This document shows positions 7,477 through 25,478 of a stretch of DNA of 64,000 nt, in pieces (the first letter of the stretch is position 1; every line of letters begins with the position of its first letter). Source of the DNA: an uncultured delta proteobacterium. Its GTDB lineage: Bacteria; Myxococcota; Myxococcia; Myxococcales; Myxococcaceae. The notes under the pieces are model-generated. The model worked only from the letters and a program-made list of their open reading frames with translations, was not told the origin of the DNA and made no database searches. The position numbers and the translations under genes are program-made. The DNA is taken from NCBI GenBank assembly GCA_963771175.1, contig CAVYSY010000003.1, positions 1-64,000 on the forward strand. The letters run 5' to 3'.

Positions 7477-8162
7477 TCACCGCCACTCGCAGACGGGCGA
7501 GCCGTTCACCACCGAGATGGCGTCCAGGTCGAAGCCGCCGGCGGTGAAGCCGTAGGAGTTGGCCCCGCTGTCACGAATACGGACGAAGCGAGCCCGGGCC
7601 ACTCCGAGGGTGGCCAGGTCGAAACCATCGCCGCCCGCCACGGCCGGATCGGTGGCGCTGATGCCATTATCCGGCGAGGAGTTCACGGGCTTCACGCCCG
7701 CGCAGCCGGGGTAGCCCCCGTGGAGTCCGTGGTGTCGCAGGGGAACTCGTGCCACGTCTGGCCGTCCTCGCTGACCGCGACCACGCCCGTCTCCACGAAG
7801 CCCCCGAAGGGGTTCTCGAAGACGAGCAGGTCCACGCCGGGCCCATCCACCACGCCGAGGGTGAGTTCCAGGACGATCTCCCCCTGGTTGCCGAGGGAGA
7901 GCACGTCCAGCGAGCCCATGCCGGCGCCGACCCCATGGGGAGGTCCGAGCACGATGTTCGGGTAGCCATCCTGGCCGAAGCCGGCGTCCTCGCCGGGCTT
8001 GAAGGAGACCACCCGGGTGGCGAACGGGTTGTACTCGACCGAGCACACCGGAGGCTGGGCGGGCTGGGGGTTCTCCTCCTCGGAGGGACCCCCGCAGCCC
8101 ACGGCGACCAGCGGCACGACGAGCCAGGCGCACAGACGCGCCCAAGTGCCGTGTGTCTTCAT
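7477..8162 (-). CDS. Cell-surface lipoprotein in B12-regulated unit (frameshift ~7715)
   Basis: Lipobox VAVGC; motifs VLSLG, DLLVFENPF, GGDGFDL, RFVRIRD, GFDLDAI. Confidence 0.8.
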
Positions 8163-8164
8163 GG

Positions 8165-9403
8165 CTATTGCTTCTTGAGGAGGACGAGCCGGCGGCCGTT
8201 CTTGTCCTTCACGCCGACGAGCAAGTCCGAGCCCATGGAAGTCAGCGACACCACGTTGGTGCAGGAGTTACTGGTGGTGAGCACGGCCTCGAGGTCACCC
8301 GGGGTGACGGAGCCGGGGGTGATGCCGCCCAGCGTCAGCGCGATGCGCGAGACATCCTTGGTGCTCGTGAAGGGGCCACGATGCAGGGCCACGCCCTCGC
8401 CGAAACCCGCGACCGACTTGAGGTCCGAGCCCGAGTAGATCTCAGGCGCGTTGGTGTCGGTCAGGGCCAGGGTCGTCCCGCCCGTGAGTGCCGGCGTGTA
8501 CGTCGCGGGAGCCACCGCGCGCAGGTGATTGGCGAAGCTGCTGTCGGCGTACCCGAGCACGGCGACCCCGTTGGCCGCCACCGCCGTGGACCCGCTGTAG
8601 ACGGCCGTGACTCCGGGAAGGTCGCCAGCTTCGAGCCCTGGAAGGGCGAGGACTCCGTCCTCAGGGCGTAGATGGCATTGCCGCTCTCGCTCGCGCCCTC
8701 GATGCCCTGACCGTTGATGAGGAAGGCCCCGGAGAGGCCGGCGGCGGAGAAGTTGCCGGGCGCGGAGACGTACTTGGAATTGGCCGGGGTGACCGTGTCG
8801 TAGACCAGGACCGTGCCCGGAATGCTCGTGAGGGAACCCGGCTTCGTGTAACCGGTGAGCAGCCGGGTGCCATCGTTGGTCAGGAAGCCGCTCGCGTATT
8901 TGGTGCCTCCATCGCGATCCTCCTCCGCGTAGATGCTCTGGAGGGGCGCGTCGCCGAGGGCGACGTTCGGCCAGGTGCCGAGCGCGTAGAGGCTATCGTC
9001 GGTCTCGCGCAAGCCGTACAGCTTGAACTCGGAGCCACTCTGGATGGCCGTCACCGCGCCGATGCCCTCGGGAAGCGTGGCGGTCTCGGTGGCGGCGGCG
9101 AAGCCCGTCTGGAGCTGCAGCGTGCCGAGCTTCGGATCATGCGGCAGGTCCGCACACGCGACACCCGCGTCGGTGCCGGAATCCGTCCGGCTCGGTGCCC
9201 GCGTCGGGGGTGATGTCCCGCACCACGCAGCGGTTGCTCTCGCAGACGTACCGCTTGCCCTCGCCCGGGCTGTCCTTGCTCGCACAGTCGAACGCGTCCA
9301 CGCACTCCGGCTCACAGCCGGTGACCAGCAGCCCCAGCGACAGGGCGCCCAGCGCCACCCCGAAGCGGCCGAACCACCGCGAACCCATCGTCTCCGTCTT
9401 CAT
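8165..9403 (-). CDS. Lipoprotein, first gene under second B12 riboswitch (frameshifted)
   Basis: MKTETMG...LLVTGC lipobox, Cys-rich N-terminus; continues in ORFs 8461-9315 and 8165-8581. Confidence 0.7.
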
Positions 9404-9557
9404 GCTGTCCTGCTTCCTCGCCCCCTCGGGCGCATTACCTTCGAGGGAAAGCGGGAGCGGGATGCGACCCGGACACGGCCTGGGAGAGGACGCACACGGC
9501 GACGCATCCGCTACCTCCCCTCGGAGGTCTCGGTGTGTCCGTGCCAGGGGCACGGGT

Positions 9558-9746
9558 CCTCGGCAGGTTTTCGGACTCACAGGCGCGGGGGCCTCGCGAG
9601 GAGACCCCTTTCCTACTGACCGTCGCTTCCCAGCCCCGGAGGGCCAGTGCTTCCTGACGGCGTTCGTTCCTGTTCACCGCTGCGGGGCAGTCCCGGACTC
9701 GCACCGGGTTCCCTCGAGTCCCCACCACCTGGTGAGGAACCGAAGA
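9558..9746 (-). promoter_or_regulatory. Cobalamin riboswitch
   Basis: AGGGAACCCGGTGCGAGTCCGGGACTGCCCCGCAGCGGTGA...GCACTG...GGGAAG...GAGTCCGAAAACCTGCC B12 box. Confidence 0.93.
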
Positions 9747-9756
9747 CGGGGCGCGG

Positions 9757-9784
9757 GATATGGCGACAGGACGGGTCTTGTCAA
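9757..9784 (-). promoter_or_regulatory. Putative sigma70 promoter for the riboswitch
   Basis: TTGACA-16 nt-CATATC immediately upstream of the riboswitch. Confidence 0.5.
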
Positions 9785-9819
9785 ATGCTCCGAGTACCGC
9801 GGGCGGGATTCGAACCCGC
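9769..9819 (-). repeat. att-like direct repeat (3' end of tRNA-Leu(CAG) plus downstream bases)
   Basis: 50/51 identical to 19024-19074. Confidence 0.92.
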
Positions 9820-9885
9820 CACTTGGAGCCTCCGGCGCGAGTGGACCAGGCTGGATTGCCGCGCAGGACATTCGCGCTATTGGGC

Positions 9886-10725
9886 TCAGGCCTCCCAGAC
9901 CCCCGGGGCGCGGCGGAGGGCCTCGGAGAGTGACTCCCTCGCCCGCCGCAGCGCCACGTCCGCGCGCCGGGTGGCCGCCGAGAGCAGCCACAGCGGTGGG
10001 CCGCCCGGAAGCTCCTCCTCCAGCACCAGGCGAGGGTCCCCCTCGGCGAGCAGCGCTGGGAGTACGCTCCTCCCCAGACCCGCGACGCAGGCATCCCGGA
10101 TGCCGAGCAGTGAGTCGCACTCCACGAGGGCCTTGGCATCCGCCGGCACCACCTTCCACCAGCGCATGGAGGCGCGGGCGCGCAGGCTCGCGGAGGGAAG
10201 GACCCAGGCCGTTGCGTCCTGTCCGGCCGCCCGCGCCCGGAAGACGCCCAGCCGCAGCCTGCCCAGCCGCTGGCCGCGCAGCGCGCCGCCCGGGGTGTGA
10301 CTGGGCCGCAGGGCCAGGTCCGTCACGCCGGGCTCCAACGCCAACTCGCTCTCGGAGATGCGCACCTGCACCCGCTGCGCGAAGGCGCACTCGCGCAGCG
10401 CGCCGAACAGCAGCGACGCCAGCACCTCGTTGGTGGTGATGACGAGGCGGCCAGCGCGCGCCCGTCGCTGCTCCTCGAGGAGTGCGTCCACGTCCTGTGC
10501 ATGGGTGCGCATCCGGGCCGCGCGCTCGGCGATGGAGAGGCCGAGCGGCGTCGGGCTCAGCCGTCTCCCCCGCAGGAAAAGCGGTGCCCCCAGCGAGCGC
10601 TCGAGCGCATCCACTCGCCGCGAGATGGAGGAGTGTCGCAGCGAGAGCTCGCGCGCCGCTCCCACGACACTCCCCGTACGCACCAATGCCTCCACCGTCT
10701 GCAGGTCGTCCCAGGAGATGTGCAT
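9886..10725 (-). CDS. LysR family transcriptional regulator
   Basis: N-terminal HTH WDDLQ...GSVVGAARELSLRHSSISRRVDALE...LF; divergent from pirin. Confidence 0.88.
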   Translation of the reverse strand: MHISWDDLQTVEALVRTGSVVGAARELSLRHSSISRRVDALERSLGAPLFLRGRRLSPTPLGLSIAERAARMRTHAQDVDALLEEQRRARAGRLVITTNEVLASLLFGALRECAFAQRVQVRISESELALEPGVTDLALRPSHTPGGALRGQRLGRLRLGVFRARAAGQDATAWVLPSASLRARASMRWWKVVPADAKALVECDSLLGIRDACVAGLGRSVLPALLAEGDPRLVLEEELPGGPPLWLLSAATRRADVALRRARESLSEALRRAPGVWEA

Positions 10726-10822
10726 GCACGCACATGCTGTGTGCGTTGAGCGGGAATCGTCAACACGGGCCCTCACTGCTATCTCTCTCCTCGGCTGCTC
10801 CTCTTCTTCGATGTCCCCCACC

Positions 10823-11515
10823 ATGACTGACCTTCGCCTGCGCCCTCTCGCCTCCCTGCCGGCCACGGAGCTGCCGTGGCTCCGCCTGCACGACCACTTC
10901 GTCGCCACCGTCGGCCCCAGCGCGGGCACGGGGCGGCCGCTCGGAAACCTCCTCGTCCTGGCCGACGCGACGTTCGCACCCCGCTCGCGCTTTCCCCTGC
11001 ACCCGCACCGGGAGATGGAAATCCTCAGCATCGTCCTCGGCGGCGAGCTGAGCCACCACGGTAATCAGGCCCACGGGGCCATCCTGCGCCCGCGCGAGGC
11101 GCAGCTGATTTCCGCCCGCGACGGGATGGTCCACGCCGAGGGCAACGACACGGACGAGGACACGCGGATGCTGCAGCTGTGGTTCACGCCGAACCACCAT
11201 GGCGGCGCGCCCGCCTACTTCCGGCGCCTCGTCCCCCACGCCCCTCGAGGAGGCCGCCACCTGGTGGCCGGGGACGAGGGGATGCCCCTGCGGAGCGACG
11301 CCCGCGTGTGGTGGCTGGACCTGGCAGCGGGACAGGAGGCGGCGCTCGAGGTGGCACCCGGACGCGCAGGCTATCTACTGTCCCTGGATGCCCCCTTGCG
11401 GCTGGGTGGGGGGGAGGTCCTCGCCAGGGGCGAGGGGGCGCAGCTGCACCGAGGAGGCATGACGGTGCGCGCGTCGCAGGCCTCGGGCGCGCTCTGGATT
11501 GACGTGACGGCCTGA
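10823..11515 (+). CDS. Pirin family protein
   Basis: FPLHPHREMEILS, GMVHAEGN and LQLW cupin motifs. Confidence 0.9.
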   Translation: MTDLRLRPLASLPATELPWLRLHDHFVATVGPSAGTGRPLGNLLVLADATFAPRSRFPLHPHREMEILSIVLGGELSHHGNQAHGAILRPREAQLISARDGMVHAEGNDTDEDTRMLQLWFTPNHHGGAPAYFRRLVPHAPRGGRHLVAGDEGMPLRSDARVWWLDLAAGQEAALEVAPGRAGYLLSLDAPLRLGGGEVLARGEGAQLHRGGMTVRASQASGALWIDVTA

Positions 11516-11668
11516 GGGGTCTCTGACTTCGCCAGGTTGCCAAAGGACGCACAGCCCGGGGGGAGCGAGCAGCTCGGCGCCGGGAACGCGCGGCTTGCGT
11601 CCCGGGTCGCGGGCGGATAACCCGGCGGCGTCTCTCCTGTTCGTGCTGACCGGCTCCGGAGATCCTCC

Positions 11669-12265
11669 TTGCCCGCTGCTCCCGTCATCCAGCCACGTCC
11701 CACCGTCCTGGCGGACCTGGTCGCCCGCACTCGCGTCCATGACATGGTGGCCGTGCTCGGAGCAGCCCTGTTCACCGCGCTCCTCTCGCAACTCGCCGTT
11801 CCGGTGCCCGGCTCCCCGGTGCCCATCACCGGCCAGACGCTCGCGGTCGTGCTCTCCGCCGCGGCGCTCGGGCCGGTGCGCGGCATGTTCGGTCAACTGG
11901 CCTATGTTCTCATGGGCGCGGTGGGACTGCCGTTCTACTCGCGGGCCGCCAGTGGCTTCGAGCACGTCCTCGGGGCGACCGGCGGCTATCTGGTGGGCTT
12001 CATCCCGGCGGCCTTCCTCGTAGGGCTGGCCGCGCGCCGTGGCCTGGACCGGCACCCGTGGAAGGCCCTGCCGCTCTTCATCGCCGGCCAGTTGGCGATA
12101 CTCGCCGTCGGCGTGCCATGGCTTGCCGTGGTGGCCCGGCTCGACGCCGCCACGGCGTTGGAAAAGGGTTTCCTGCCGTTCCTCCCGGGCGCGCTGCTCA
12201 AGGCCGCCATCGCCGCCACGCTGATGCCTCTCCTCTGGCGATTCGGGCGTCTCCGCGAGGCATAG
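11669..12265 (+). CDS. bioY: Biotin transporter BioY
   Basis: PVPITGQTLAV, GLPFY, GATGGYLVGF, GFLPFLPG. Confidence 0.92.
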   Translation: MPAAPVIQPRPTVLADLVARTRVHDMVAVLGAALFTALLSQLAVPVPGSPVPITGQTLAVVLSAAALGPVRGMFGQLAYVLMGAVGLPFYSRAASGFEHVLGATGGYLVGFIPAAFLVGLAARRGLDRHPWKALPLFIAGQLAILAVGVPWLAVVARLDAATALEKGFLPFLPGALLKAAIAATLMPLLWRFGRLREA

Positions 12266-12556
12266 ATACTCCTTGATGTCCTCTGGCTTTTTAAAATCAG
12301 CGGCGTCCTGGCCCTGTTCTTCGCGGCGGTGACGGCACTGGAATATTGGAACGTGTGGCGGCTGAAGCGCCAATCGAACGAACACTCCGATTGAGCCGCG
12401 AGGGAGTCCGCATGTTCCCCTTTCGTGGGACTCAGGAGTCCGTGCGCCGGGCATCGGCCGACGGCACGGTGAGGGCGGCGAGGCGCAGCAGCTCGTCATC
12501 GGCGAGCTGCTCGGTGGCGAGCACGGACGGGTCGGCCTTCATGGGCTGCATGTGCC

Positions 12557-13187
12557 ATCGCGGATGACAAGGAACGAATCGCGTTGGTGCTGGGTGCGAC
12601 GGGTGGAATCGGCGGTGAGACGGCGGCCGCCCTGCTGGCCAGGGGATGGAAGGTGCGCGCCCTGCATCGCAAGCCAGAGGCAGGTGGGCGGCACGCGGGG
12701 CTCGAGGCCGCGGAGTGGATCCGCGGGGATGCGTTGCGCGCCGAGGACGTCATCCAGGCCGCGCGCGGCGCTGACCTGCTCGTCCATGCGGTCAATCCCC
12801 CTGGCTACCGGGACTGGGAGAAGCTCGTGCTGCCCATGCTGGAGAGCAGCCTCCAGGCGGCCCGGGAGGCCGGCTCCCGCCTTCGCGCGCTTCCATTTCG
12901 GCGGCCACTGGTTGGAAGACGGCGGGGAGATGGGCCGGAGCATTCAACGAGTCCTGGGCCACCCCACCCCGTCGATCCGCCGGATGCCCTGGCCTCTGCT
13001 GCGGCTCGCCGCGCCCTTCAACGTCACGCTTCGCGAGCTGCTGGAGGTGCGCTACCTCTGGCAACACCCCGTCCGCCTCGACAACACGCGCCTGCGCTCC
13101 TTCCTCGGCGAGGAGCCGCACACGCCGTTGGATGTCGCGGTGCGCACGACGCTCGCGGCGTTGGGTTGCGGCGCGAGACTGGCCTAG
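12557..13187 (+). pseudogene. NAD-dependent epimerase/SDR pseudogene with central deletion
   Basis: ALVLGATGGIG...HAVNPPGY N-terminal part joined out of frame at ~12873 to the C-terminal part FHFGGHW...LDNTRL; no intact start. Confidence 0.8.
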
Positions 13188-14008
13188 AACTCATAGCGCA
13201 GGTGACGGACCAGGTTCCGATAGAACGGCAGCCGGCCCATCATCCCGTGCATCGCCCTGGAGAACCCGCTCCTGGCCAGCCGGCTCACCAGGTCGGGCAT
13301 CGTGAGGAACGGGACGTCCTCGACGAGGTGGAGCTTGGGCACCTGCTTCTCGAGGTCGTGTGGATCATCGACTCCCCAGACGAGCTCGACCTTCGCGCCA
13401 CCTACCGTCGCCAACCGGGAGACGAGGCGCACCATCGGCCCGCTGTAGCCGTCGAACGCGAGCTGCCCGCTCGGGAACTGCTCGGTGATGCGCCGGAGCA
13501 ACGCCGTCCCGTCCTGCTCGTGCAGGTACATCATCAGGCCCTCGGCGATGACGAACACCGGCGTGTCTCCGGGGATGGCGTCGAGCCAGGAGAGATTCGT
13601 CACCGAGGAGCCAATCTGGCGATAGCCGTCGCGCTCCGGATACAGCTGCTCGCGCAAGGCGATGACGTCAGGAAAGTCGACGTCGTACCAGCGGACCTTC
13701 GGCCCCGGGTCAATCCGATACACGCGGGTGTCGAGGCCGCAGCCGAGGTGCAGCACTGTCGACTCAGGATTCGCGGCGAGGAACGCTCGCGTCCACTGGT
13801 CGAAGTGCAAGGCCCGCATCGGCAGGGTGATTTCGCCCCCGCTCGGGAGCTTCAAGGCCTTGAAGTCGTAGTCGATGCGCGCGACGGCGTCCGCCGCGAA
13901 CCGGTCGCCGAGGATGGGATGCTCGGCCGCGGCGTCCAGCGCCTTGCCGTACAGCGTGGCGAGGTACGTCTCCTTCTCCTTCGTCAGACGAACCTTCTGC
14001 TCTGCCAT
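13184..14008 (-). CDS. Class I SAM-dependent methyltransferase (LCM/TcmP-like)
   Basis: TLYGKALD, VLHLGCGLDTR, WYDVDFPDVI, IAEGLMMYL. Confidence 0.9.
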   Translation of the reverse strand: MAEQKVRLTKEKETYLATLYGKALDAAAEHPILGDRFAADAVARIDYDFKALKLPSGGEITLPMRALHFDQWTRAFLAANPESTVLHLGCGLDTRVYRIDPGPKVRWYDVDFPDVIALREQLYPERDGYRQIGSSVTNLSWLDAIPGDTPVFVIAEGLMMYLHEQDGTALLRRITEQFPSGQLAFDGYSGPMVRLVSRLATVGGAKVELVWGVDDPHDLEKQVPKLHLVEDVPFLTMPDLVSRLARSGFSRAMHGMMGRLPFYRNLVRHLRYEF

Positions 14009-14288
14009 TGTCGCCTCCGGCCGCGGTGCGCGGCCCGGGGAGCGAAGCAATCCTCATCTCCCTGGTCAAGCAGCTGAAAGCCAGCTCGCCGCGGTGGGTG
14101 AAGGTGCCGCGGCGAGCGCATCGGACGGGCTCCGGGGCGTGAGGTGCAGTGCCTGCACAGGGGCGACGCAAGAATTTCCTTGGGTGTCGACCCGGTGCAA
14201 ATCCTGCGCGGACGTGGGGGAAACGGCTGACACGGGACATACGACATGCCCTGGCCGGAGCCTTGCAGTCGCCCTGGGTGAGCCCACC

Positions 14289-15407
14289 ATGCGTATCGTC
14301 CTCGTGCTCCTCCTCGTCTTCCACGGCCTGCTCCACCTGCTCGGGTTCGCGAAGGCATGGAAGCTCGCGCCTGTCCCGGAGCTCACGGGCGCGACGCTGT
14401 TCCCGCTGCCGGAGTCCCTCTCCAAGGTCATCGGCACCTTCTGGCTCCTCGCCTGCCTGGTGCTCCTGGGAGCGGCCGCCCTGGTCCTGGTGCGGAGTGG
14501 AGTGTGGTGGCTCGTCGCGACGGTGGGAGTCCTCCTCTCGCAGTTGCTCGTCATCTACTCGTGGCCCGATGCGAAGGCCGGCACGGTCGCCAACCTCCTT
14601 CTTGCCATCGCGGTGCTCGTGGCGGGGTCCGATGCGCGCTTCCAGCGGGAGACCGACGGCACGGTGCGGGCACTCCTCTCGGGGGTGCCCACCTCCTCCT
14701 CGGCCATCGTGACGCACCAGGAGCTCGAACCGCTGCCCACCCCCGTGCGCCAATGGCTCGAGGCGTCAGGAGTGGTCGGAAAGCCGCGCCCCCGGACCGT
14801 ACGGCTGAAGCAGCGGGGGTTGCTGCGCACATCGCCGGACCAGGACTACATGCCCGCGGTGGCTCACCAGTACTTCCGCACGGACGAACCCGGCTTCGTC
14901 TGGCGCGTCCGGGTGAAGATGATGCACGTCCTCCCCGTCGCGGGACGTGACTCGTACCTCGATGGCAGGGGCCGGATGCTCATCAAGGCCGCCTCCCTCG
15001 TGCCCGTGGTCGACGCGGCGGGCGAGAAGATCGATCAGGGAACGCTCCTCCGCTTCCTGGGCGAGATCGTCTGGTTCCCGAGCGCAGCGCTCAGCCCGCA
15101 CATCCGGTGGGAGGCCATCGACGCGACGTCAGCGAGGGCCACGATGACCTACGAGGGCGTTACTGGCTCCGCGGTCTTCTCGTTCGACGAGCGTGGGCGC
15201 TTCGTCAGTATGAGCACGGAGCGGTATATGGGCTCCGGCGCAGACGCCAGGCTCGAGCGCTGGTTCACCCAGGCCACCGAGTGGCGGGAGATGGGTGGCG
15301 TGGTGATCCCGGTCCAGGGCGACGTCATCTGGAAGCTCGCGAGCGGCGACTTCAGCTACTACCGGTGGGAGCTCACCGAGCTCGAGTTCGATCCACCCGA
15401 GCTGTAA
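14289..15407 (+). CDS. DUF6544-like membrane-anchored protein
   Basis: 4 N-terminal TMs (HGLLHLLGF); LPTPVRQWL, PGFVW, RFLGEIVWFPSA. Confidence 0.8.
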   Translation: MRIVLVLLLVFHGLLHLLGFAKAWKLAPVPELTGATLFPLPESLSKVIGTFWLLACLVLLGAAALVLVRSGVWWLVATVGVLLSQLLVIYSWPDAKAGTVANLLLAIAVLVAGSDARFQRETDGTVRALLSGVPTSSSAIVTHQELEPLPTPVRQWLEASGVVGKPRPRTVRLKQRGLLRTSPDQDYMPAVAHQYFRTDEPGFVWRVRVKMMHVLPVAGRDSYLDGRGRMLIKAASLVPVVDAAGEKIDQGTLLRFLGEIVWFPSAALSPHIRWEAIDATSARATMTYEGVTGSAVFSFDERGRFVSMSTERYMGSGADARLERWFTQATEWREMGGVVIPVQGDVIWKLASGDFSYYRWELTELEFDPPEL

Positions 15408-15526
15408 AGGCATAAGCATCAGAAAGATGGGAGGCCGGTTGAAGGACGAGGGCCGGAAGCGGCAGTGCCGCTCGGCCCTGCAATGTATTTCGGCGGAGCC
15501 TTTGACTACCGCGCCAGTCTCCGTGT

Positions 15527-18007
15527 TCAGTCCAGAAGGTTCGCCAGGCCCGCGTACGTATTGGGTCCGGGGATGCCATCAATCGGGCCAGCGTAGCCGC
15601 CTCGGCTCGCCAGGGACTGGAGCGTCTTATAGGTATTGGTTCCCGGTACCCCATCGATGGGCCCCGTGTACCCGGCGCCACTCAAGAAGGTCTGGAGGCC
15701 CCTCCACGAGTTCACCCCCAGCACGCCGTCAACGGGGCCCATGTACCCGCCCAGGCGCGCGACCCGCTGAAGCGCCGCGTACGAGTTGGTCCCCATGACG
15801 CCATCAATGGGGCCCGTGTAGCCAAAACCTCGCAGAACGGTCTGCACGCCCTTCCAGGAGTTGGTTCCCATCACCCCGTCAATAGGACCTGTGTAGCCGC
15901 CCTTCGCCGCGAAACGCTGAACCCCCTTCCACGAGTTGGTTCCCATGACGCCATCCACGGGCCCCGAGTAGCCGTAGCCGCTGAGTACCTGCTGGACTCC
16001 CTTCCACGTGTTCGTGCCGGGGACGCCGTCCACGACGCCGGTGTACCCGCCTGCTCGAGCCACCCGCTGCAGCGTCACCCCCTGACTGTTGGTGACGGGA
16101 GGCACACCGCCGCCCGACCCGTCCAGGTACGCCTGGATCCCGTTATACGTATTGGGCCCGGGGATGCCATCGATGGGACCCGTGTAGCCACCGTCCTGGG
16201 CAAGCAGTTGCAATCCCTTGTAGGTGTTGATGCCCGGATCGCCGTCGACAGGCCCGTCGTAGTACCCCAGCCCTCGAAGGACTTTTTGCACCCCGAGCCA
16301 GGTATTGACACCCGGGACGCCATCAACGGGGCCTGTGTAGCCGCCCCTCTGGGCCAGCTTCTGCAGGATGATTCCCTGCTCGATGGTGATGGCGGGATCG
16401 CCGCCGCCCGAGCCACCCCCGGGGATGGCCGTCGGCGGGGGCGGAGTCGCGCCATCCGGTGGTTGAGACAGCCCGGTGAACGCAGACAGCTTCGCGACAT
16501 TCAAATCGAGAGGAATTCCATTCTGGTTGCCGGACGAGGTGTACTGATGAATCTCCCACGACGGAAAGGCCGCCCCGATCGTCGGATTGCCCGGCGTGCC
16601 CGTGTAGTGGGCGATCCACAGTTTTGACCCCACTGCCTTGGTCTGGGTCCAGGTGTTGGACGTGAGCAGGCTCGAATAGGTGTACAGGAACGGGGCCTTC
16701 CCCAGGCGGGTCTTGACCGCTTGCATGAAGGTCGCGGTCATCGAGTCGTTCCAGAAGATGCCATCGTCGATCGCCTCGTTGTCGAGCACCAGGAGGTCGC
16801 CGGGCCGATGGTCATACAGGTGGTCCATGAAGTACTGGGCGTCCGCCGCGGGGTTGGTGGAGCCCGCCACCCAGTAGTGCCCGACAATCAAACCGGCTGC
16901 GCGGGCCCGGGCGACCTGCTGGGCATAGTACGGCGCGACGTACAGGGGTGAGACATTGGATCCGCCTGCTTTGACGATCGCGAACTGATAGCCGGCACCG
17001 CGAATGGCGTTGAAGTCCAGATCACGCTGGGTCGTGCCGACATCGATCCCGTAGACACCGCTCATCCCTGCCGGTGGAGGTGTCCCGGGGTCCTGGGCCA
17101 ACCAGTTGTTGAGGCCAAGATAGGTATACTGTCCCGGAAACCCATCCACAGGTCCCGTGTACCCGCCCAGCTGTGCGAGCCTCTGGACCCCCTTCCAGGT
17201 GTTCTCACCCGGGATGCCGTCGATGGGGCCGGAGTAGAAGCCACGGTTCGTGATGACGGTCTGAACGCCCTTCCACGTATTGACCCCCGGTACACCGTCC
17301 ACCGGACCCGTATATCCACCCCGCTGGGCAACGCGCTGGAGGGTCTTGCCATCCTCGATGCTGACCTGGATTCCCCCGGAACCACCACCGGTGCCGGTAC
17401 CACCGCCCGATCCAGTGCCAAGCACGTTCCGGATGAGGGGAGCGGGATCGCTGACATTCTCCCCAAACGCACAACGATCCGTGGAGCCTCGGGTCATGTG
17501 GAGGTGCGGCCCGGTCCACGCCGACCCATGGTCATCCCCGTAGCTTGCCGCATAGGCAATGATGGCACCCTGCTGGACGTAATCTCCCACGGAGACGCGT
17601 GTCCGGATGACGTGGGCGTACCCGGAAAAGTCACCTGGCGCGGACTCCACGGCGATGGTGTGTCCCACGATGGATGAGTACTGGATGCGGCGGACGATGC
17701 CAGAGCGCAGCGCGGGAATCGCTTGACCGCCACCGGCGGCAATATCGAGACCCCGGTGACCAGCGGGGCCGTAGTAGGGGCCCGTGACTCCGAAAAGGGT
17801 GTTCCACTGTCCTTCCGCATAGAACACTTGCACATTGGACGGAGCGGCGAGCGCTCCTTGTCCCGTGACAGCGTCAAGGCTCCCGCCTTGCAGACCCTCC
17901 GGCTCCATCCCACCACAGCCAGTCAGGGCCGCCATGCCCAACACCAGCGTCACGGCGGCCGAGAAGACACTCCGGAACAAGCTTTTTGAATTGGACCTGT
18001 TGTTCAT
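15527..18007 (-). CDS. Lipoprotein peptidoglycan hydrolase: M23 peptidase + GH25 muramidase + 13 wall-binding repeats
   Basis: Lipobox LTGC; HRGLD and HLH; GID, LDNE, HQYTS; YxGxxDGxxG repeats. Confidence 0.9.
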   Translation of the reverse strand: MNNRSNSKSLFRSVFSAAVTLVLGMAALTGCGGMEPEGLQGGSLDAVTGQGALAAPSNVQVFYAEGQWNTLFGVTGPYYGPAGHRGLDIAAGGGQAIPALRSGIVRRIQYSSIVGHTIAVESAPGDFSGYAHVIRTRVSVGDYVQQGAIIAYAASYGDDHGSAWTGPHLHMTRGSTDRCAFGENVSDPAPLIRNVLGTGSGGGTGTGGGSGGIQVSIEDGKTLQRVAQRGGYTGPVDGVPGVNTWKGVQTVITNRGFYSGPIDGIPGENTWKGVQRLAQLGGYTGPVDGFPGQYTYLGLNNWLAQDPGTPPPAGMSGVYGIDVGTTQRDLDFNAIRGAGYQFAIVKAGGSNVSPLYVAPYYAQQVARARAAGLIVGHYWVAGSTNPAADAQYFMDHLYDHRPGDLLVLDNEAIDDGIFWNDSMTATFMQAVKTRLGKAPFLYTYSSLLTSNTWTQTKAVGSKLWIAHYTGTPGNPTIGAAFPSWEIHQYTSSGNQNGIPLDLNVAKLSAFTGLSQPPDGATPPPPTAIPGGGSGGGDPAITIEQGIILQKLAQRGGYTGPVDGVPGVNTWLGVQKVLRGLGYYDGPVDGDPGINTYKGLQLLAQDGGYTGPIDGIPGPNTYNGIQAYLDGSGGGVPPVTNSQGVTLQRVARAGGYTGVVDGVPGTNTWKGVQQVLSGYGYSGPVDGVMGTNSWKGVQRFAAKGGYTGPIDGVMGTNSWKGVQTVLRGFGYTGPIDGVMGTNSYAALQRVARLGGYMGPVDGVLGVNSWRGLQTFLSGAGYTGPIDGVPGTNTYKTLQSLASRGGYAGPIDGIPGPNTYAGLANLLD

Positions 18008-18086
18008 ACGGACGATTGTCGAGGCGTCCGTCGCGAAGTTGCGCCCGGATTTCCCAGATTCTTGGGAGTTCGGGAGGCGCCCGAAG

Positions 18087-18890
18087 CTACCCGCCGGTCA
18101 CCTGGATGTTGTAGGCGACGTCATTCGACTCGGCCTCGCGGATCCACGCGATCACCCCCTCCACCAGCGCTCCGGGGTGGAGGATGAGCTTGCCCAGATT
18201 GGCCACGACCTGGTCATGCGCTTCGATGAGGGGCCCCCATTTCTCCTGAGGCAGCGGCGCGAGGAGCTCGGCCAGCAACCAGGCTCCCTCGCGCGCGGCG
18301 TCCATCGCGAAGTTGAACACCGCGTCCTCCCCGTCGGGACTGATGGCCTCGAGGCGCTTCAAGCGGGGAGAGACCTCGCCGAGCTCCACTTCAATCACGG
18401 CGACGAGCCGCGACAGGAGGGTGTTGATGCGGTGGAAGTCCTCCTTCAGCGCGGCCAGCTCCGGGCCAGGAGCCACGGTCGCCGCGGCGATGCCGAGGTC
18501 CAGGTTGATATGGGCATTCATCCCCAGCAGCAGGTGCTGAAGGATCAACGGGGAGTCCTGCTCCAGGGCGTCGAAGGCCATCTTCCACGACTTCGTCGGA
18601 GTGCCACCAGAGGACCAGATGTTCCAGGCAGCCAGGAAGCGGCTGGCGAAGACCACGTCCAGCCGCTCCATGCGGGCGTTGTCCTGGAAGACATTGCCCG
18701 CGATGATCGCTCGCCTCACGTTGACGGTGACCCGCTCGTAGAGCGCGGTGAAGTACCCGATGCGCGAAGGATTCCGCAGCGACTGGTCGATGATGTCATT
18801 GGCCTGCTGGATGACCTCGTCGATAGTCGCGGGCGGAGCGGGAGACGGAGACTGGGCGGGAGCAAGGGACGGAGAGGTGGACAGGGCCAT
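18087..18890 (-). CDS. DUF5995-like protein
   Basis: FTALYERVT, LDVVFASRF, LLLGMNAHINLDL. Confidence 0.8.
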   Translation of the reverse strand: MALSTSPSLAPAQSPSPAPPATIDEVIQQANDIIDQSLRNPSRIGYFTALYERVTVNVRRAIIAGNVFQDNARMERLDVVFASRFLAAWNIWSSGGTPTKSWKMAFDALEQDSPLILQHLLLGMNAHINLDLGIAAATVAPGPELAALKEDFHRINTLLSRLVAVIEVELGEVSPRLKRLEAISPDGEDAVFNFAMDAAREGAWLLAELLAPLPQEKWGPLIEAHDQVVANLGKLILHPGALVEGVIAWIREAESNDVAYNIQVTGG

Positions 18891-19023
18891 GGATCTCGAT
18901 AGCACGGAATCAAGGAGCAGGCCGCTTGGTGTTGAGGCTTACGCCGCCACAGAGCCAACAGGTCCAGGCTCCTGTCGCGCACCTCATGGGAGGGCGGCCT
19001 GGGCAGGCGTGTGCCCAAAGGGG

Positions 19024-19074
19024 GGACGGGTCTTGTCAAATGCTCCGAGTACCGCGGGCGGGAGTCGAACCCGC
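19024..19074 (-). repeat. att-like direct repeat overlapping the tRNA-Leu(CAG) 3' end
   Basis: Matches 9769-9819 except for one T-loop base. Confidence 0.92.
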
Positions 19075-19124
19075 AACCTCTGCGTTCTGAACGCAGCGCC
19101 TCTACCAGGTTGGGCTACCGCGGC
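19050..19124 (-). tRNA. tRNA-Leu(CAG)-like, short variable loop, no encoded CCA
   Basis: GCCGCGG TA GCC CAACCTGGTAGA GGC G CTGCG TTCAGAA CGCAG AGGTT GCGGG TTCGACT CCCGC CCGCGGT A. Confidence 0.88.
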
Positions 19125-19127
19125 ATG

Positions 19128-19201
19128 TGCCGAAAGCGGGAGTCGAACCCGCAACCTCCAGACTCTCGTTCTGGCGCCTCTACCAATTGGGCTACTCCGG
19201 C
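19128..19201 (-). tRNA. tRNA-Leu(GAG)-like, atypical (C33, short variable loop)
   Basis: GCCGGAG TA GCC CAATTGGTAGA GGC G CCAGA ACGAGAG TCTGG AGGTT GCGGG TTCGACT CCCGC TTTCGGC A. Confidence 0.8.
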
Positions 19202-19225
19202 GACTGGGACTGCTGGACTGCGAAG

Positions 19226-19297
19226 AGCGGTCGGCGGGAGTCGAACCCGCGTTCTCCTGAGTGGCGCTCAGGGGCCTCACCTCTCGGCCACGGCCGC
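19226..19297 (-). tRNA. tRNA-Gly(GCC)-like, atypical (G32/C33/C38, C5-A68 mismatch)
   Basis: GCGGCCG TG GCC GAGAGGTGA GGC C CCTGA GCGCCAC TCAGG AGAAC GCGGG TTCGACT CCCGC CGACCGC T. Confidence 0.72.
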
Positions 19298-19310
19298 GTG
19301 GATGACCCGG

Positions 19311-19350
19311 AAAAGCAAGAGGCCGGGTCCCCTCTCGGGAGCCCGGCCTC
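19311..19350 (-). terminator. Intrinsic terminator/attenuator hairpin upstream of the tRNA array
   Basis: GAGGCCGGG-CTCCC-GAGA-GGGGA-CCCGGCCTC followed by TTGCTTTT. Confidence 0.85.
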
Positions 19351-19387
19351 CACTCACCGTGCCTCGTCTGGGACGAGGACGCGGAAG

Positions 19388-19537
19388 TCAGAGTCCGGGC
19401 GGTCGACCGCGAAGCGACTCGAGGCCGAGCAGGACATCCAGGGTGGTGGCCAGACCGTTGCGCGAGAGCGCATCGATGCCAGTGTCAACGTCGTTGAGGT
19501 GCTTGGGGTTCATCGGGCTCTGCTTCGTCACCGTCAT
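19388..19537 (-). CDS. Putative attenuator leader peptide (49 aa)
   Basis: SD AAAGGAG; MTVTKQSPMNPKHLNDVDTGIDALSRNGLATTLDVLLGLESLRGRPPGL; its 3' end is complementary to the terminator 5' arm. Confidence 0.65.
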   Translation of the reverse strand: MTVTKQSPMNPKHLNDVDTGIDALSRNGLATTLDVLLGLESLRGRPPGL

Positions 19538-19611
19538 GGTCACCGCTCCTTTCATCGAGAAAAGACGCGGCCGGAATTCGTTCCTGACAGGCGACAGCGC
19601 TCGCACGCTCC

Positions 19612-20681
19612 TCAAGCCGCCGTCAGCCGCCCGCTGCGGTACAGGAGCACGAGGAACAGCGGCCCGCCGAGGAGCGCCGTCACCGAGCCCACGGGAAGCT
19701 CCTTCCCGAACAGCGGGAGGGCCAGCCGCGCCAGCAGGTCCGCGAGCAGGAGGAACGCCGCGCCCCCGAGCGCGGAGAGCGGCACGAGCAGCCGCTGGTC
19801 CGGCCCGAACACGAGACGCAGCAGGTGGGGGACGATGAGCCCCACGAAGCCGACGAGCCCCGAGAGCACCACGGCCCCCGCCACGCTGACGCTCGCGGCG
19901 AGCAGCAACGTCCGGCGCGTCCAGGCCACGGACACGCCGAGCGAGGCCGCGTCTTCATCGCCCAAGGAGAGCAGGTTGAGCCGCCCCGACAGCGCCGAGC
20001 ATCACGCCGATGGCCCCCACCTCGAGGAGCGCGCTCAGCACGAGCGTGTGGAGGTACTCGTAGCCGAGGTTCCCCACGAGCCAGTAGAGGATCGCCTCCA
20101 GTTGGGTCGGATTGGAGAGCGTCTTGATGAGGGTGATGACCGCGGAGGCGAAGGCGTTGAAGACGACGCCGATGAGGAGCGCCGCATAGGGCGTGCGGCC
20201 ACCATGGCCCCGGCTGACGACGAGCACGAGGAGCATGGACGCCGCGGCACCGAGGATGGCGAAGAAGGCCGGAGCGGAGCTGCGCGCCAGCATTCCACCG
20301 AGCCCAGGAGCCACCTCGCCCACGGTGGCGAGCCCCAGGGCCACCGCGATGGTGGCGCCCAGGGCCGCGCCACCCGAGACGCCGAGCACGAAGGGGTCCG
20401 CCAGGGGGTTGCGCAGCACGCCCTGCAGTGTGGTCCCGGAAGCGGCGAGCCCCGCGCCGACGATGGCCGCCAGCACGGCGCGTGGCAGGCGGACGGACCA
20501 GAAGATGCTGGCGTCCTTGGACCTGGGCCCCTCGAAGAAGGCGGCGTGAAGGGGAGATGGACTGATCTCCAAAGCGGACGGCCAGGACGAACGCCACGAG
20601 CAGCAGGACGAGGAACGCCCCGCAGAGCCCGAGCGCCCACCCCGGAGTGAACGGCCCCCTGCCTCTGCCCGGCTCACGCAT
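19612..20681 (-). CDS. FecCD/BtuC family ABC permease (frameshifted)
   Basis: VRLPRAVLA, LRNPLADPFVLGVSGGA, GFVGLIVPH, ELPVGSVTALLGGP. Confidence 0.9.
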
Positions 20682-20683
20682 GC

Positions 20684-21557
20684 TCAGCGCCCGCTCCCCG
20701 CATCGGACTTCACGGACGGGTGCAGCAGCCGGAACAACTCCTCCAACCCGCGCCCCAGCGAGGGCCCCGGCTGCAGCATCGCCAGGGAGGGCACCTCCAC
20801 CCAGCGAGCCTCCGAGAGCAGCGCGACGAGCTTGTCCTTGCCCACGTCCACGTCCGCGGCGTCCACCACCACGTCCGGCTCGGCCACCAGCGCGCGCTCG
20901 ACGGAGTAGACGGAGTAGGCCGAGCCCGCGTCCGCCGCCACGTTGAGGGCCCCCGCGTCGCGCAGCAACTCGTCCGCGAAGGAGCCGGGCCCCGCGACGA
21001 CGAGTGGCTCGAAGCCGTAGACGAAGAGGACTCGGGGAGGCTTCAGCGTCCTGGCGGTCTCACGGATGCCGGGCGCGGGTGGACTCGATGCGCTGGACGA
21101 GGGCCTCGGCCTCCTTCTCCTTCCCGAGCGCCTTGCCCACGGCACGGAGGGCGGCCAGCGTATCGGCGACGGTGTGCAGGGGCAGCACCAGCACGGGCAC
21201 GTCGAGCTCGGCCAGCTTCTCCACGGGCCGCTGGTTGCCAGGCCCGGGCTGGACGAGCACGAGGTCCGGCTCGAGACCCACCACGGCCTCGATGGACGGG
21301 TCGATGAAGCCACCCACGCGGGGCAGGCCAGCCACCTCCTTCGCCTCGTCGAAGCGAGAGACCCCCACGAGGGTGCTCCCGGCTCCGAGCGCGATGACCA
21401 TCTCCGTGAGGGACGGAACGAGCGTCACCACGCGCTTCACCTTCTCGGGGGGCTTGGGACCCAGGAAGCGAGGGCCCCCCTTGGGAGGCGCGGCGTGCGC
21501 GGCGGTGACGAGGCACAGCGCGGCGAGCAGGACGAACGGGACGAGACGGGTCTTCAT
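20684..21557 (-). CDS. BtuF-like helical-backbone substrate-binding protein (frameshift ~21075)
   Basis: Signal peptide; RVVTLVPSLTE, LEPDLVL, AGPGSFADEL, LQPGPS. Confidence 0.88.
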
Positions 21558-21566
21558 GGGGAAGGC

Positions 21567-25174: not shown

Positions 25175-25235
25175 GAGTCCGCCTTCCACTCTCTCCGTCG
25201 AAGAGAGAAGGCATCACGGGCGACACGCCCGCACC

Positions 25236-25440
25236 CCTGGGCAGGTCTCCTGGCTCCGGGCTCCGGCCGAGGCGCACACCGCGCCTCCCAGAAGGGCTCC
25301 TCCGCCTTCCCCCGCCGGCTGGCTGGAGTGGCGACTGCCGAGGACCCCTGCCCTGACGTCAGGGCTGCCCGATCTCAGTGGCGGGACCGCGCCGGATTCG
25401 CACCGGCTTCCCTCTTGAAGGCCCGGCATGGGCACCCAAG
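25236..25440 (-). promoter_or_regulatory. Cobalamin riboswitch
   Basis: AAGAGGGAAGCCGGTGCGAATCCGGCGCGGTCCCGCCACTG...GCCACT...GGGAAGGC...GAGCCAGGAGACCTGCC. Confidence 0.95.
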
Positions 25441-25449
25441 GGCAGGCCC

Positions 25450-25478
25450 TTCCTAGGGGCTCAACTCCCGCGCGTCAA
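25450..25478 (-). promoter_or_regulatory. Putative sigma70 promoter
   Basis: TTGACG-17 nt-TAGGAA just upstream of the riboswitch. Confidence 0.5.

Follow-up and report, generated by a model that had tools for sequence, protein, structure and literature searches.

Short-armed and C33 transfer RNA genes in a myxobacterial genome belong to a divergent, array-type set behind a candidate leader-peptide attenuator

A 64,000-nucleotide stretch of the genome of an uncultured delta proteobacterium of the family Myxococcaceae (GenBank assembly GCA_963771175.1, contig CAVYSY010000003.1, positions 1 to 64,000; hereafter the window) contains three transfer RNA (tRNA) genes, two for leucine and one for glycine, with unusual variable or anticodon loops. 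These genes are real, conserved, and of a known kind. What adds interest is that C replaces U at position 33 (C33) as a fixed trait of particular isoacceptors, and that a conserved candidate leader switch lies in front of the genes. The reading favored here, to which a probability of about 0.6 is given, is that they are working tRNAs of a divergent, array-type set, serving as back-up ribosomal decoders of the commonest codons behind a leader-peptide transcription attenuator.

ARAGORN called three tRNA genes and no others in the window; all three are on the minus strand, within 249 bp:

19049-19124, minus strand: tRNA-Leu(CAG), type I (short variable loop); 60.4 bits with Rfam RF00005
19127-19201, minus strand: tRNA-Leu(GAG), type I (short variable loop); 52.3 bits with Rfam RF00005
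19225-19297, minus strand: tRNA-Gly(GCC), array type; 50.3 bits with Rfam RF00005

All three scores are above the RF00005 gathering score of 29 bits. In the annotation adopted here the genes span 19050-19124, 19128-19201, and 19226-19297. The features listed for these genes in an earlier note on this DNA could all be read from the sequence. The T-arm GCGGG-UUCGACU-CCCGC is common to the three tRNAs, in the sequence and in the cmscan alignments, and both leucine tRNAs have A73 and a variable loop of 5 nt (AGGUU). The anticodon loop is UUCAGAA in Leu(CAG), with U33 and A37; ACGAGAG in Leu(GAG), with C33 and A37; and GCGCCAC in Gly(GCC), with C33 and with G32 and C38 able to pair. The two C33 sites are at plus-strand positions 19168 and 19266. 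The glycine acceptor has G1-C72, C2-G71, G3-C70, and U73, with a C5.A68 mismatch, and G18 and G19 are present in all three tRNAs. None of the genes is followed by an encoded CCA, as had been noted, and this is ordinary here, since 29 of 64 housekeeping-type tRNAs also lacked it in a crude test. The identical T-arm likewise holds within the window but not beyond it, as orthologues have UUCGAAU or UUCGAGU loops and other stems. The statement that decoding-loop features are lost was too strong, because every loop keeps its 7 nt and no anticodon varies.

The short arm of the two leucine tRNAs had been taken as aberrant for a bacterium, and this was wrong: it marks a known and widespread type. Both genes combine a Leu anticodon with a variable loop in the 4-5 nt range that defines type I tRNALeu, a kind described in Streptomyces coelicolor, where tRNALeu(CAA) has a short loop and coexists with long-armed tRNALeu (Fan et al. 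2019, NAR; PMC6614811). According to that report, the S. coelicolor type I tRNALeu(CAA) is charged by the single leucyl-tRNA synthetase (LeuRS) of that species, while the LeuRS of Escherichia coli charges only type II. The identity set given there for E. coli-type LeuRS (A73, A14, A15-U48, G18G19, and U54-A58) is present in both window genes, as read from the D-loops AAUUGG and AACCUGG, the U48 that ends AGGUU, and the T-loop UUCGACU, although such elements do not by themselves prove charging. The window genes differ from S. coelicolor tRNALeu(CAA) in that their anticodons, CAG and GAG, duplicate those of type II housekeeping genes, that they have A37 in contrast to housekeeping G37, that the GAG member has C33, and that they stand in an array-type set behind a leader; leucylation was shown in S. 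coelicolor and is putative here. The D-arm of the window leucine genes, GCCC-AAnnGGnAGA-GGC, was searched for in one genome per species, giving at least 120 loci, and among the matches listed 110 of 110 pattern-bearing ARAGORN tRNAs were leucine tRNAs of 74-79 nt; this pattern is general to short leucine tRNAs, so it measures their breadth and not the distribution of C33. Most of the matches listed were single chromosomal genes of Actinomycetota, with some from Planctomycetota and other phyla. The Leu-Leu tandem matched 209 phage records, 195 of them from Mycobacterium phages. The matching tRNA-Leu(gag) of cluster C mycobacteriophages is also of type I, but it has U33 and G37. A search of a plasmid collection gave six weak matches only.

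The genome assembly comprises 9.83 Mb in 58 contigs, of which the window is on contig C3, with a GC content of 69.4% and an estimated quality of 82% completeness and 4.5% contamination. Long-armed housekeeping leucine genes with anticodons gag, tag, cag, taa, and caa, and three ordinary Gly-GCC genes, are present elsewhere in the genome, and the three window genes are therefore supernumerary. They are not alone, as further odd tRNA genes were found on other contigs:

Contig C26, 380045-381301: cluster of 13-14 genes, including a 75-nt Leu(caa)
Contig C25, 56114-56497: cluster of five genes
Contig C54, 50517-50673: Asp(gtc) and Glu(ctc)
Contig C47: one Cys gene

The nearest kin of the three window genes are each other and the Leu(caa) of the contig C26 array, not the housekeeping genes. 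The window leucine genes are 80% identical to each other and to this Leu(caa), are not close to housekeeping leucine genes, and have A at position 37 in contrast to the G of the latter. In other words, they are supernumerary isodecoders that diverge from the housekeeping set, as the members of tRNA arrays are. The cluster was matched in 17 of 17 genomes of the same genus and in 24 of 41 genomes searched. Its usual form in relatives is Glu(ctc)-Asp(gtc)-Gly(gcc)-Leu(gag)-Leu(cag), with five genes in most, and one flank (the end of FecCD and a small open reading frame, or ORF) is syntenic in most of them. The window trio is best read as a remnant of an ancestral five-gene cluster, itself kin to the long tRNA arrays that have spread horizontally among bacteria and phages. 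The codons that correspond to the ancestral cluster are among the most used in this genome, with GAG ranked 1, CUG 2, GGC 6, CUC 7, and GAC 9; the trio that remains corresponds to ranks 2 (CUG), 7 (CUC), and 6 (GGC). Leu(CAG) is expected to read CUG, Leu(GAG) to read CUC and CUU, and Gly(GCC) to read GGC and GGU.

Some irregularities of the assembly touch these genes and their neighbors. Reading frames are split in FecCD and the B12 periplasmic binding protein (19612-21566) and in both LeuRS loci (C40:153755-156232 and C33:6253-8685, the prefixes being contigs), so the assembly seems to carry indel errors or pseudogenes. Leu-GAG is 75 nt long here and 76 nt in relatives, a single-base difference of the size affected by such apparent indels.

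Upstream of the tRNA genes, between the B12 operon and tRNA-Gly, is a short ORF with the features of a leader:

19564-19590, minus strand: conserved upstream element CTGTCAGGAACGAATTCCGGCCGCGTC, a candidate promoter or operator
19546-19552, minus strand: Shine-Dalgarno sequence AAAGGAG, 8 nt before the leader ATG and within the 19-nt motif GAAAGGAGCGGTGACNATG
19388-19537, minus strand: leader ORF of 49 codons plus UGA, MTVTKQSPMNPKHLNDVDTGIDALSRNGLATTLDVLLGLESLRGRPPGL

The arrangement AAAGGAG-N8-ATG places a ribosome-binding site and a short ORF immediately upstream of the genes that would be regulated. The 19-nt motif occurs three times in the genome, each time directly before an odd-tRNA cluster (contigs C3, C54, and C26). 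The contig C54 copy heads the Glu-Asp pair, and copies also head rearranged clusters at two related loci (L014 and L015). Within the family, the motif was found in 31 of 121 genomes, including 13 of 13 of the genus, at 55 sites in all, and a reversed control gave 0. A tRNA gene followed on the same strand in 33 of the 34 sites analyzed, with the first tRNA 218-331 nt past the ATG; at the one site that breaks the rule (L176) the ORF runs on and a terminator motif is lacking. Across ORFs of 36-62 codons (33 of 34 sites), the conserved block at the N-terminus and the P-G-L/F-stop block at the C-terminus keep a common frame, and this constancy of frame across length variants argues for translation of the leader. 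Nucleotide-level conservation covers the last four codons and the stop, and elsewhere the peptide differs from one leader class to the next. The first 14 codons (19496-19537 in the window) are an exception, as every class keeps the block (M)TVTKQSxMNPK(H/Q) irrespective of the tRNAs behind it; candidate explanations are a function of the peptide, a segment for RNA pairing, or what is left of a pan-array leader. No Pfam family was found for the leader peptide and no Rfam family for the leader RNA. The upstream element was kept in all aligned leader copies, in the contig C54 copy, and in a Myxococcus record (L049). Readings of it as an extracytoplasmic-function-like or sigma-54-like promoter were dropped because, by eye, the spacing did not fit.

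The distal half of the leader is rich in the amino acids of the ancestral cluster, namely Leu, Gly, Asp, and Glu (codons 28-44, 19406-19456), and in orthologous leaders it reads ...GLDTALDLLLGLELEGGLPPGL. The codons used are those of the downstream tRNAs (CUG, CUC, CUU, GGC, GGU, GAU, GAC, and GAG), and several of them end in U and are seldom used in this genome. Past this stretch the transcript could form two alternative structures:

19388-19400, minus strand: region 2, GCCCGGACUCUGA, made up of the stop codon and the 10 nt of the leader ORF that precede it; would be the 5' strand of an antiterminator
19362-19378, minus strand: small hairpin A, CCUCGUC-CCA-GACGAGG, between regions 2 and 3
19341-19353, minus strand: region 3, GUGGAGGCCGGGC, common to the antiterminator and the 5' strand of the terminator
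19311-19350, minus strand: candidate terminator hairpin with stems 19350-19337 and 19331-19319 and U-rich tail UCUUGCUUUU, ending 13 nt before tRNA-Gly

The terminator hairpin has a folding energy of -31.5 kcal/mol (z = -3.0, RNAfold) and is nearly invariant in 29 aligned sites. In the window, 11 of 13 positions can pair between region 2 and region 3, which takes in 5'-strand bases of the terminator and those immediately ahead of them. When the RNA was cut after the terminator 5' strand and folded, this strand was sequestered upstream in 6 of 6 loci, and the partner was the end of the ORF in five of the six. The pairing depends on register: with the register fixed by the stop codon and GGCCGGGC, a mean of 10.3 of 13 positions pair, versus 3.7-6.9 at shifts of 1-3, and one position of the region 2/3 duplex swaps U-A (20 cases) for C-G (3 cases). 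These results are consistent with an attenuator in which a ribosome that reads the 49-codon leader to its stop would cover the ORF end, allowing the terminator to form and leaving the tRNA genes off, while a ribosome stalled in the Leu/Gly/Asp/Glu-rich stretch would leave the ORF end free to pair with the terminator 5' strand, giving read-through into the tRNAs.

Short contigs assembled from an RNA library are confined to the leader (19321-19543), and one ends in an Illumina adapter at 19543. Their word depth is far above that of an 890-nt contig spanning the tRNAs, in a single study and with the proviso that contig depth cannot rank the parts of a gene. This is suggestive of an abundant, terminated leader RNA and was not used as evidence for termination.

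The leaders fall into classes that precede different tRNA sets:

Class a: followed by subsets of Glu/Asp/Gly/Leu/Leu
Class b: followed by Tyr Lys Gly Gln Asn Pro Pro (His) Arg Arg Met Phe Thr Val (Leu)
Class c: followed by long arrays that include Cys, Trp, Ile, and His

Agreement between the leader residues and the tRNAs was assessed with the conserved first 14 and last four residues left out. Class a leaders with the full set had 19 of 32 and 21 of 33 Leu/Asp/Gly/Glu residues versus 31% expected (p = 7e-4 and 1e-4), and the window leader had 11 of 31 residues in its present set of Gly and Leu versus 20% expected (p = 0.03). Class b leaders were weakly enriched. Across six class representatives, 92 of 192 residues matched the leader's own set, and none of 265 derangements of the sets came as high (mean 0.31, maximum 0.40); six is a small number for such a test, and the array sets are truncated by the ends of the loci. 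A record of Myxococcus sp. Y35 (L049) shows the same architecture ahead of an array with the order Tyr-Pro-Gln-Phe-Trp-Ala-Leu, and the leader there contains Y, P, Q, F, W, A, and L.

Several observations weigh against control by attenuation or against efficient use of the tRNAs. A sigma-70 promoter scan and a consensus terminator scan of 18950-19750 both called none, the latter because the stem has an internal mismatch. The window antiterminator duplex has a z of only -0.9 against shuffled sequences, and in a GC-rich RNA it is not energetically special. In 19 of 31 sites another window of the ORF pairs with region 3 equally well or better, one such partner being the L-G-L-E codons CUCGGCCUC, and the contig C54 copy folds with a different partner, the N-terminal segment of the ORF. 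Codon matching is significant for class a only and weak outside it, with class c and the L177 and L190 leaders at expectation and showing no cognate enrichment. The leader sites were found with a motif that contains the Shine-Dalgarno sequence and the ATG, so that the presence of these two at each site is by construction. The N-terminal block conserved across classes is left unexplained by the attenuator model. Among the tRNAs, position 37 varies in the sister Glu tRNA (A, U, or C) and is U in Asp, which is odd for efficient decoders, and since type I tRNALeu is not a substrate for LeuRS from E. coli (PMC6614811), charging should not be assumed here.

Part of this would be expected if the tRNAs were used and the ORF were no sensor, being instead an independent small protein or belonging to a small RNA of ~220 nt with its own terminator, with the tRNAs expressed from another promoter or by constitutive read-through. 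The N-terminal block is unusual for a pure leader peptide, and the undistinctive energetics of the antiterminator, the lack of a called promoter, and the weak codon matching outside class a all fit such an arrangement. Against it, 33 of 34 sites keep the ORF, terminator, and tRNAs at a fixed distance from one another, and the three relocate as a unit. It is the last four codons and the stop, complementary to the terminator 5' strand, that are conserved as nucleotides while the remaining peptide varies by class; the leaders fit their own tRNA sets better than any of the derangements; and the 13 nt between the terminator tail and tRNA-Gly leave little room for a promoter. An ORF of this independent kind is therefore considered unlikely.

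The genes themselves show the marks of maintained tRNAs. Base pairing of the cloverleaf was followed across the orthologous families:

Leu-GAG family, 19 sequences: 99.7% of cells paired; double changes in 14 of 20 pairs; 0 of 500 shuffles as high
Gly family, 11 sequences: 98.6% of cells paired; double changes in 6 of 20 pairs; 0 of 500 shuffles as high

Sliding the 3' partners of the Leu-GAG family by 1-3 columns reduced pairing to 37-50%. Conservation of C33 in orthologues, a check set beforehand, was confirmed: Leu-GAG loops were (U/A/C)CGAGA(G/C) in 22 of 25 orthologous copies and the Gly-GCC loop was GCGCCAC in 16 of 16, which excludes a private mutation or sequencing error. The string C33-G-A-G-A37 was invariant across the 19-sequence alignment, the Asp-GUC loop was CCGUCUA in nine of 10 copies, and Leu-CAG had U33 in 24 of 24. 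In contigs from four other runs (three RNA libraries), no other letter appeared at either C33 site, and the same contigs showed a position 32 A-to-U difference that is found in relatives; contigs can hide rare variants, and those from RNA libraries may derive from DNA, which limits what they add. A larger collection of 262 distinct array-type tRNAs from myxobacterial loci had C33 fixed in Asp-GUC (12 of 12, with U37), in Gly-GCC (12 of 12, with the whole loop identical), and in Leu-GAG (17 of 17, a count that carries less weight as it is partly by construction, loci L149-L160 having been retrieved by a search in which C33 was obligatory; this does not touch the counts for Gly and Asp). C33 was also present in three of four His-GUG, and in this collection it was absent from Leu-CAG, Asn, Tyr, Phe, Ile, and Cys. 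The covariation in both families and the fixation of C33 by isoacceptor bear out the earlier claim that these genes are not the product of random decay.

Two simple rules for C33 were ruled out. Avoidance of queuosine does not hold generally, because C33 occurs in Asp and His and not in Asn and Tyr, which have U33, and neither does C33 whenever position 34 is G, because Phe, Ile, Tyr, Asn, Cys, and Pro-GGG keep U33. The sister tRNA-Asp(GUC) (C54:50517-50588) and its orthologues depart from the norm at further positions, with G8 replacing U8 and a U10-A25 pair in the D-stem in addition to the C33 and U37 kept in every distinct sequence.

The Leu-GAG/C33 pattern was present in 36 of 401 genomes of the phylum, and a reversed-pattern control gave two matches. 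It occurred in 33 of 171 genomes of the window's family, in several large-genome genera, and in two of two genomes of one distant family, where it adjoins type I Leu-CAG and type I Leu-CAA genes within arrays; no other family covered by the 401 genomes yielded it. The trait is thus old and patchy, as expected of array-derived genes. The same patchiness could be read as a sign that the genes are neutral leftovers, a hitch-hiking remnant of a horizontally acquired tRNA array with little present use, in which GC pressure put C at a position 33 that tolerates it. In favor are the redundancy of this supernumerary cluster with housekeeping genes, its reshuffling, splitting, and duplication from species to species, the variable position 37 of its Glu member, and the 69% GC content of the genome. 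This explanation is nevertheless judged improbable, more so than a non-sensor ORF. The cloverleaf covariation is strong, position 33 never flips within an isoacceptor whereas the neighboring position 32 does, the site is stable in all 17 genomes of the genus, and a conserved, apparently regulatory leader travels with the tRNA genes. In addition, U33 was found in 64 of 64 housekeeping-type tRNAs of this genome, versus C33 in five of 24 array-type tRNAs, so GC pressure alone does not explain C33.

A use in translation, as the favored reading of back-up decoders holds, is indicated by the anticodons. Bacterial LeuRS does not read the anticodon, and the invariance of CAG and GAG in the leucine tRNAs therefore points to codon reading. 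Taken together, the commonest codons served, the invariant leucine anticodons, and the matching leader argue for ribosomal decoding by spare tRNAs made on demand. C33, with A37 replacing housekeeping G37 and with G32-C38 in the glycine tRNA, is a fixed, isoacceptor-specific trait that is compatible with decoding. There is a precedent in Saccharomyces cerevisiae, whose tRNALeu(GAG), with the same anticodon and the same departure from U33, is reported to carry a natural C33 and to decode CUC, with minimal effect of changing C33 to U33 (RNA 2026, PMC13492127). Unlike the window gene, the yeast tRNA is eukaryotic, long-armed, and single-copy, with no spare set, and the likeness is convergent and not homologous.

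An extra tRNA is no help when the amino acid itself is short, and the logic of the leader thus fits impaired housekeeping tRNAs or ribosomes; toxins, nucleases, antibiotics, and failure of modification are situations that would fit. The loops with C33, A37, or G32-C38 are plausibly poor substrates for proteins that read or cut housekeeping anticodon loops, and the loop differences (C33, A37, G32/C38 in Gly, U37 in Asp) may provide escape from whatever acts on those loops. The earlier suggestion of nuclease-resistant replacements is plausible in this light, as it fits both the stall-induced logic and a C33 that is specific to the array set (0 of 64 versus five of 24). A more specific form of this idea, offered tentatively, is a stall-triggered tRNA reserve, in which the multivalent leaders sense decoding failure and switch on spares whose loops go unseen by agents that disable housekeeping tRNAs. 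Candidate disablers would be anticodon nucleases from kin, prey, or phages, or the cell's own toxins. Phage tRNAs described as insensitive to nucleases are similar in being extra tRNAs with anticodon loops that differ from those of housekeeping tRNAs of the same anticodon (van den Berg et al. 2023, eLife, PMC10264068), and they differ from the window genes, which are chromosomal and vertically kept. The main text of that paper does not mention position 33.

The genome also has two LeuRS loci, the main one on contig C40 and a second on contig C33, ~45% identical to each other. Such a second paralogue is present in many large myxobacterial genomes. Here it is 55-57% identical to its same-genus matches, may be mis-binned, and is not adjacent to the tRNAs. 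The idea that the second enzyme is dedicated to type I tRNALeu was left as a tentative lead: in a choice of 62 genomes, compared outside the window's genus and including related genomes that are not independent, two LeuRS were found in 15 of 23 genomes with Leu-GAG/C33 versus six of 31 without. Type-I-like matches to a broader D-arm pattern occurred in 58 of 62 genomes, against a reversed-pattern background of 0-4 per genome.

Given that myxobacteria are rich in secondary metabolism, tRNAs that keep their acceptor-end identity elements and have unusual anticodon loops (C33, possible G32-C38 closure, U37 in Asp) might be imagined as non-ribosomal aminoacyl donors for cell-wall bridges, peptide natural products, or lipid or protein aminoacylation, or as decoys for tRNA-binding proteins, but the earlier proposal of such donors or decoys gained nothing in its favor and is very improbable: one side of the cluster consists of B12 uptake genes and the leader and the other of a species-specific insertion, with no Fem-type, cyclodipeptide-synthase, L/F-transferase, or MprF-like gene among the conserved neighbors and no tRNA-dependent transferase beside the cluster; the two distinct leucine anticodons are both invariant; the codons served are the genome's commonest; C33 is no bar to decoding in the yeast tRNA described above; and a leader written largely in cognate codons appears to tie expression to the behavior of the ribosome. 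Non-proteinogenic tRNAs for cell-wall or peptide synthesis, such as a staphylococcal tRNAGly, would be recognized by loss of G18G19 or weak EF-Tu features together with a partner transferase; the window tRNAs, by contrast, all keep G18 and G19.

In the attenuators of the trp, his, leu, thr, ilv, and pheA operons and of pheST, the end of a leader ORF overlaps an antiterminator strand that competes with an intrinsic terminator right ahead of the genes controlled. The leader described here is like them in having a short ORF led by a Shine-Dalgarno sequence, and it would also share the enrichment in cognate codons, the overlap of the ORF end with an antiterminator, and the terminator. It is unlike them in that the genes regulated would be tRNAs and not enzymes, and in being long (41-62 codons), multivalent, and provided with a conserved N-terminal block. 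A search of the literature for leader-peptide control of tRNA genes found no description of it, and a leader switch before these tRNA genes is apparently unpublished.

The window genes also resemble known tRNA arrays in being supernumerary and divergent, in isodecoder redundancy, and in horizontal spread (PMC4758250, PMC8421152), and relatives of the window genes sit in such long arrays (L015, L175-L189, and L049). With three genes here and five ancestrally, the cluster does not amount to an array unit, defined as at least 20 tRNA genes at a density of at least 2 per kb (Tran et al. 2016, PMC4758250), and unlike long arrays it occupies a site that is fixed and syntenic across the whole genus. 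The trn operon (L-array) of Anabaena 7120 is described as silent until translation is impaired and as controlled through direct repeats within its promoter (Santamaria-Gomez et al. 2021, PMC8421152); the main text of that paper contains no mention of C33, U33, a leader peptide, or an attenuator.

The species-specific side of the cluster begins at the 3' end of tRNA-Leu(CAG), where a repeat was found:

19024-19077 and 9769-9822: direct repeat of 54 nt with 96% identity, made up of the 3' part of tRNA-Leu(CAG) and 25 nt of flank

The repeat brackets a 9.25-kb segment (insertion 9823-19023) that is absent from eight related loci (L003-L005, L007, L011-L013, and L016), in which the tRNA cluster directly abuts the homologue of 8100-9822. 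No integrase was found. The segment looks like an island that integrated into this spare tRNA gene. Its cargo includes a LysR/pirin pair, BioY, an NAD-binding protein, an LCM-type methyltransferase, DUF6544/DUF6920, a lytic protein with M23, GH25, and peptidoglycan-binding domains, and DUF5995. The M23/GH25 peptidoglycan hydrolase gene (15530-18007, minus strand) contains 12-13 diverged tandem units of 75 nt (25 residues) at 15542-17318. The minus strand also carries two cobalamin riboswitches. One (9545-9759, 92.6 bits) is directly downstream of the tRNA cluster in relatives, and the other (25223-25454, 53.7 bits) heads the TonB-receptor/BtuF/FecCD operon, whose end lies just before the tRNA leader. 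This B12 uptake operon and the leader ORF are the conserved neighbors of the cluster.

tRNA genes are usually treated as constitutive or controlled by growth rate, and U33 as untouchable. Here, genetically tractable bacteria keep a second, small set of tRNAs in which C33 is fixed in particular isoacceptors and which appears wired to a translated sensor of the kind known from amino-acid operons, and short-armed leucine tRNAs and C33 tRNAs of this kind should not be labeled pseudogenes in annotation. If the wiring is as proposed, it would explain how cryptic spare tRNA arrays switch on under translational stress and would provide a direct assay of what the tRNAs are for. It would also open experiments on why some tRNAs dispense with U33 and on whether the change protects against enzymes that act on the anticodon loop. 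If the tentative reading as a stall-triggered reserve is true as well, the tRNA pool of these bacteria would be a regulated, damage-responsive system, and U33 would be a recognition handle that can be dropped on purpose.

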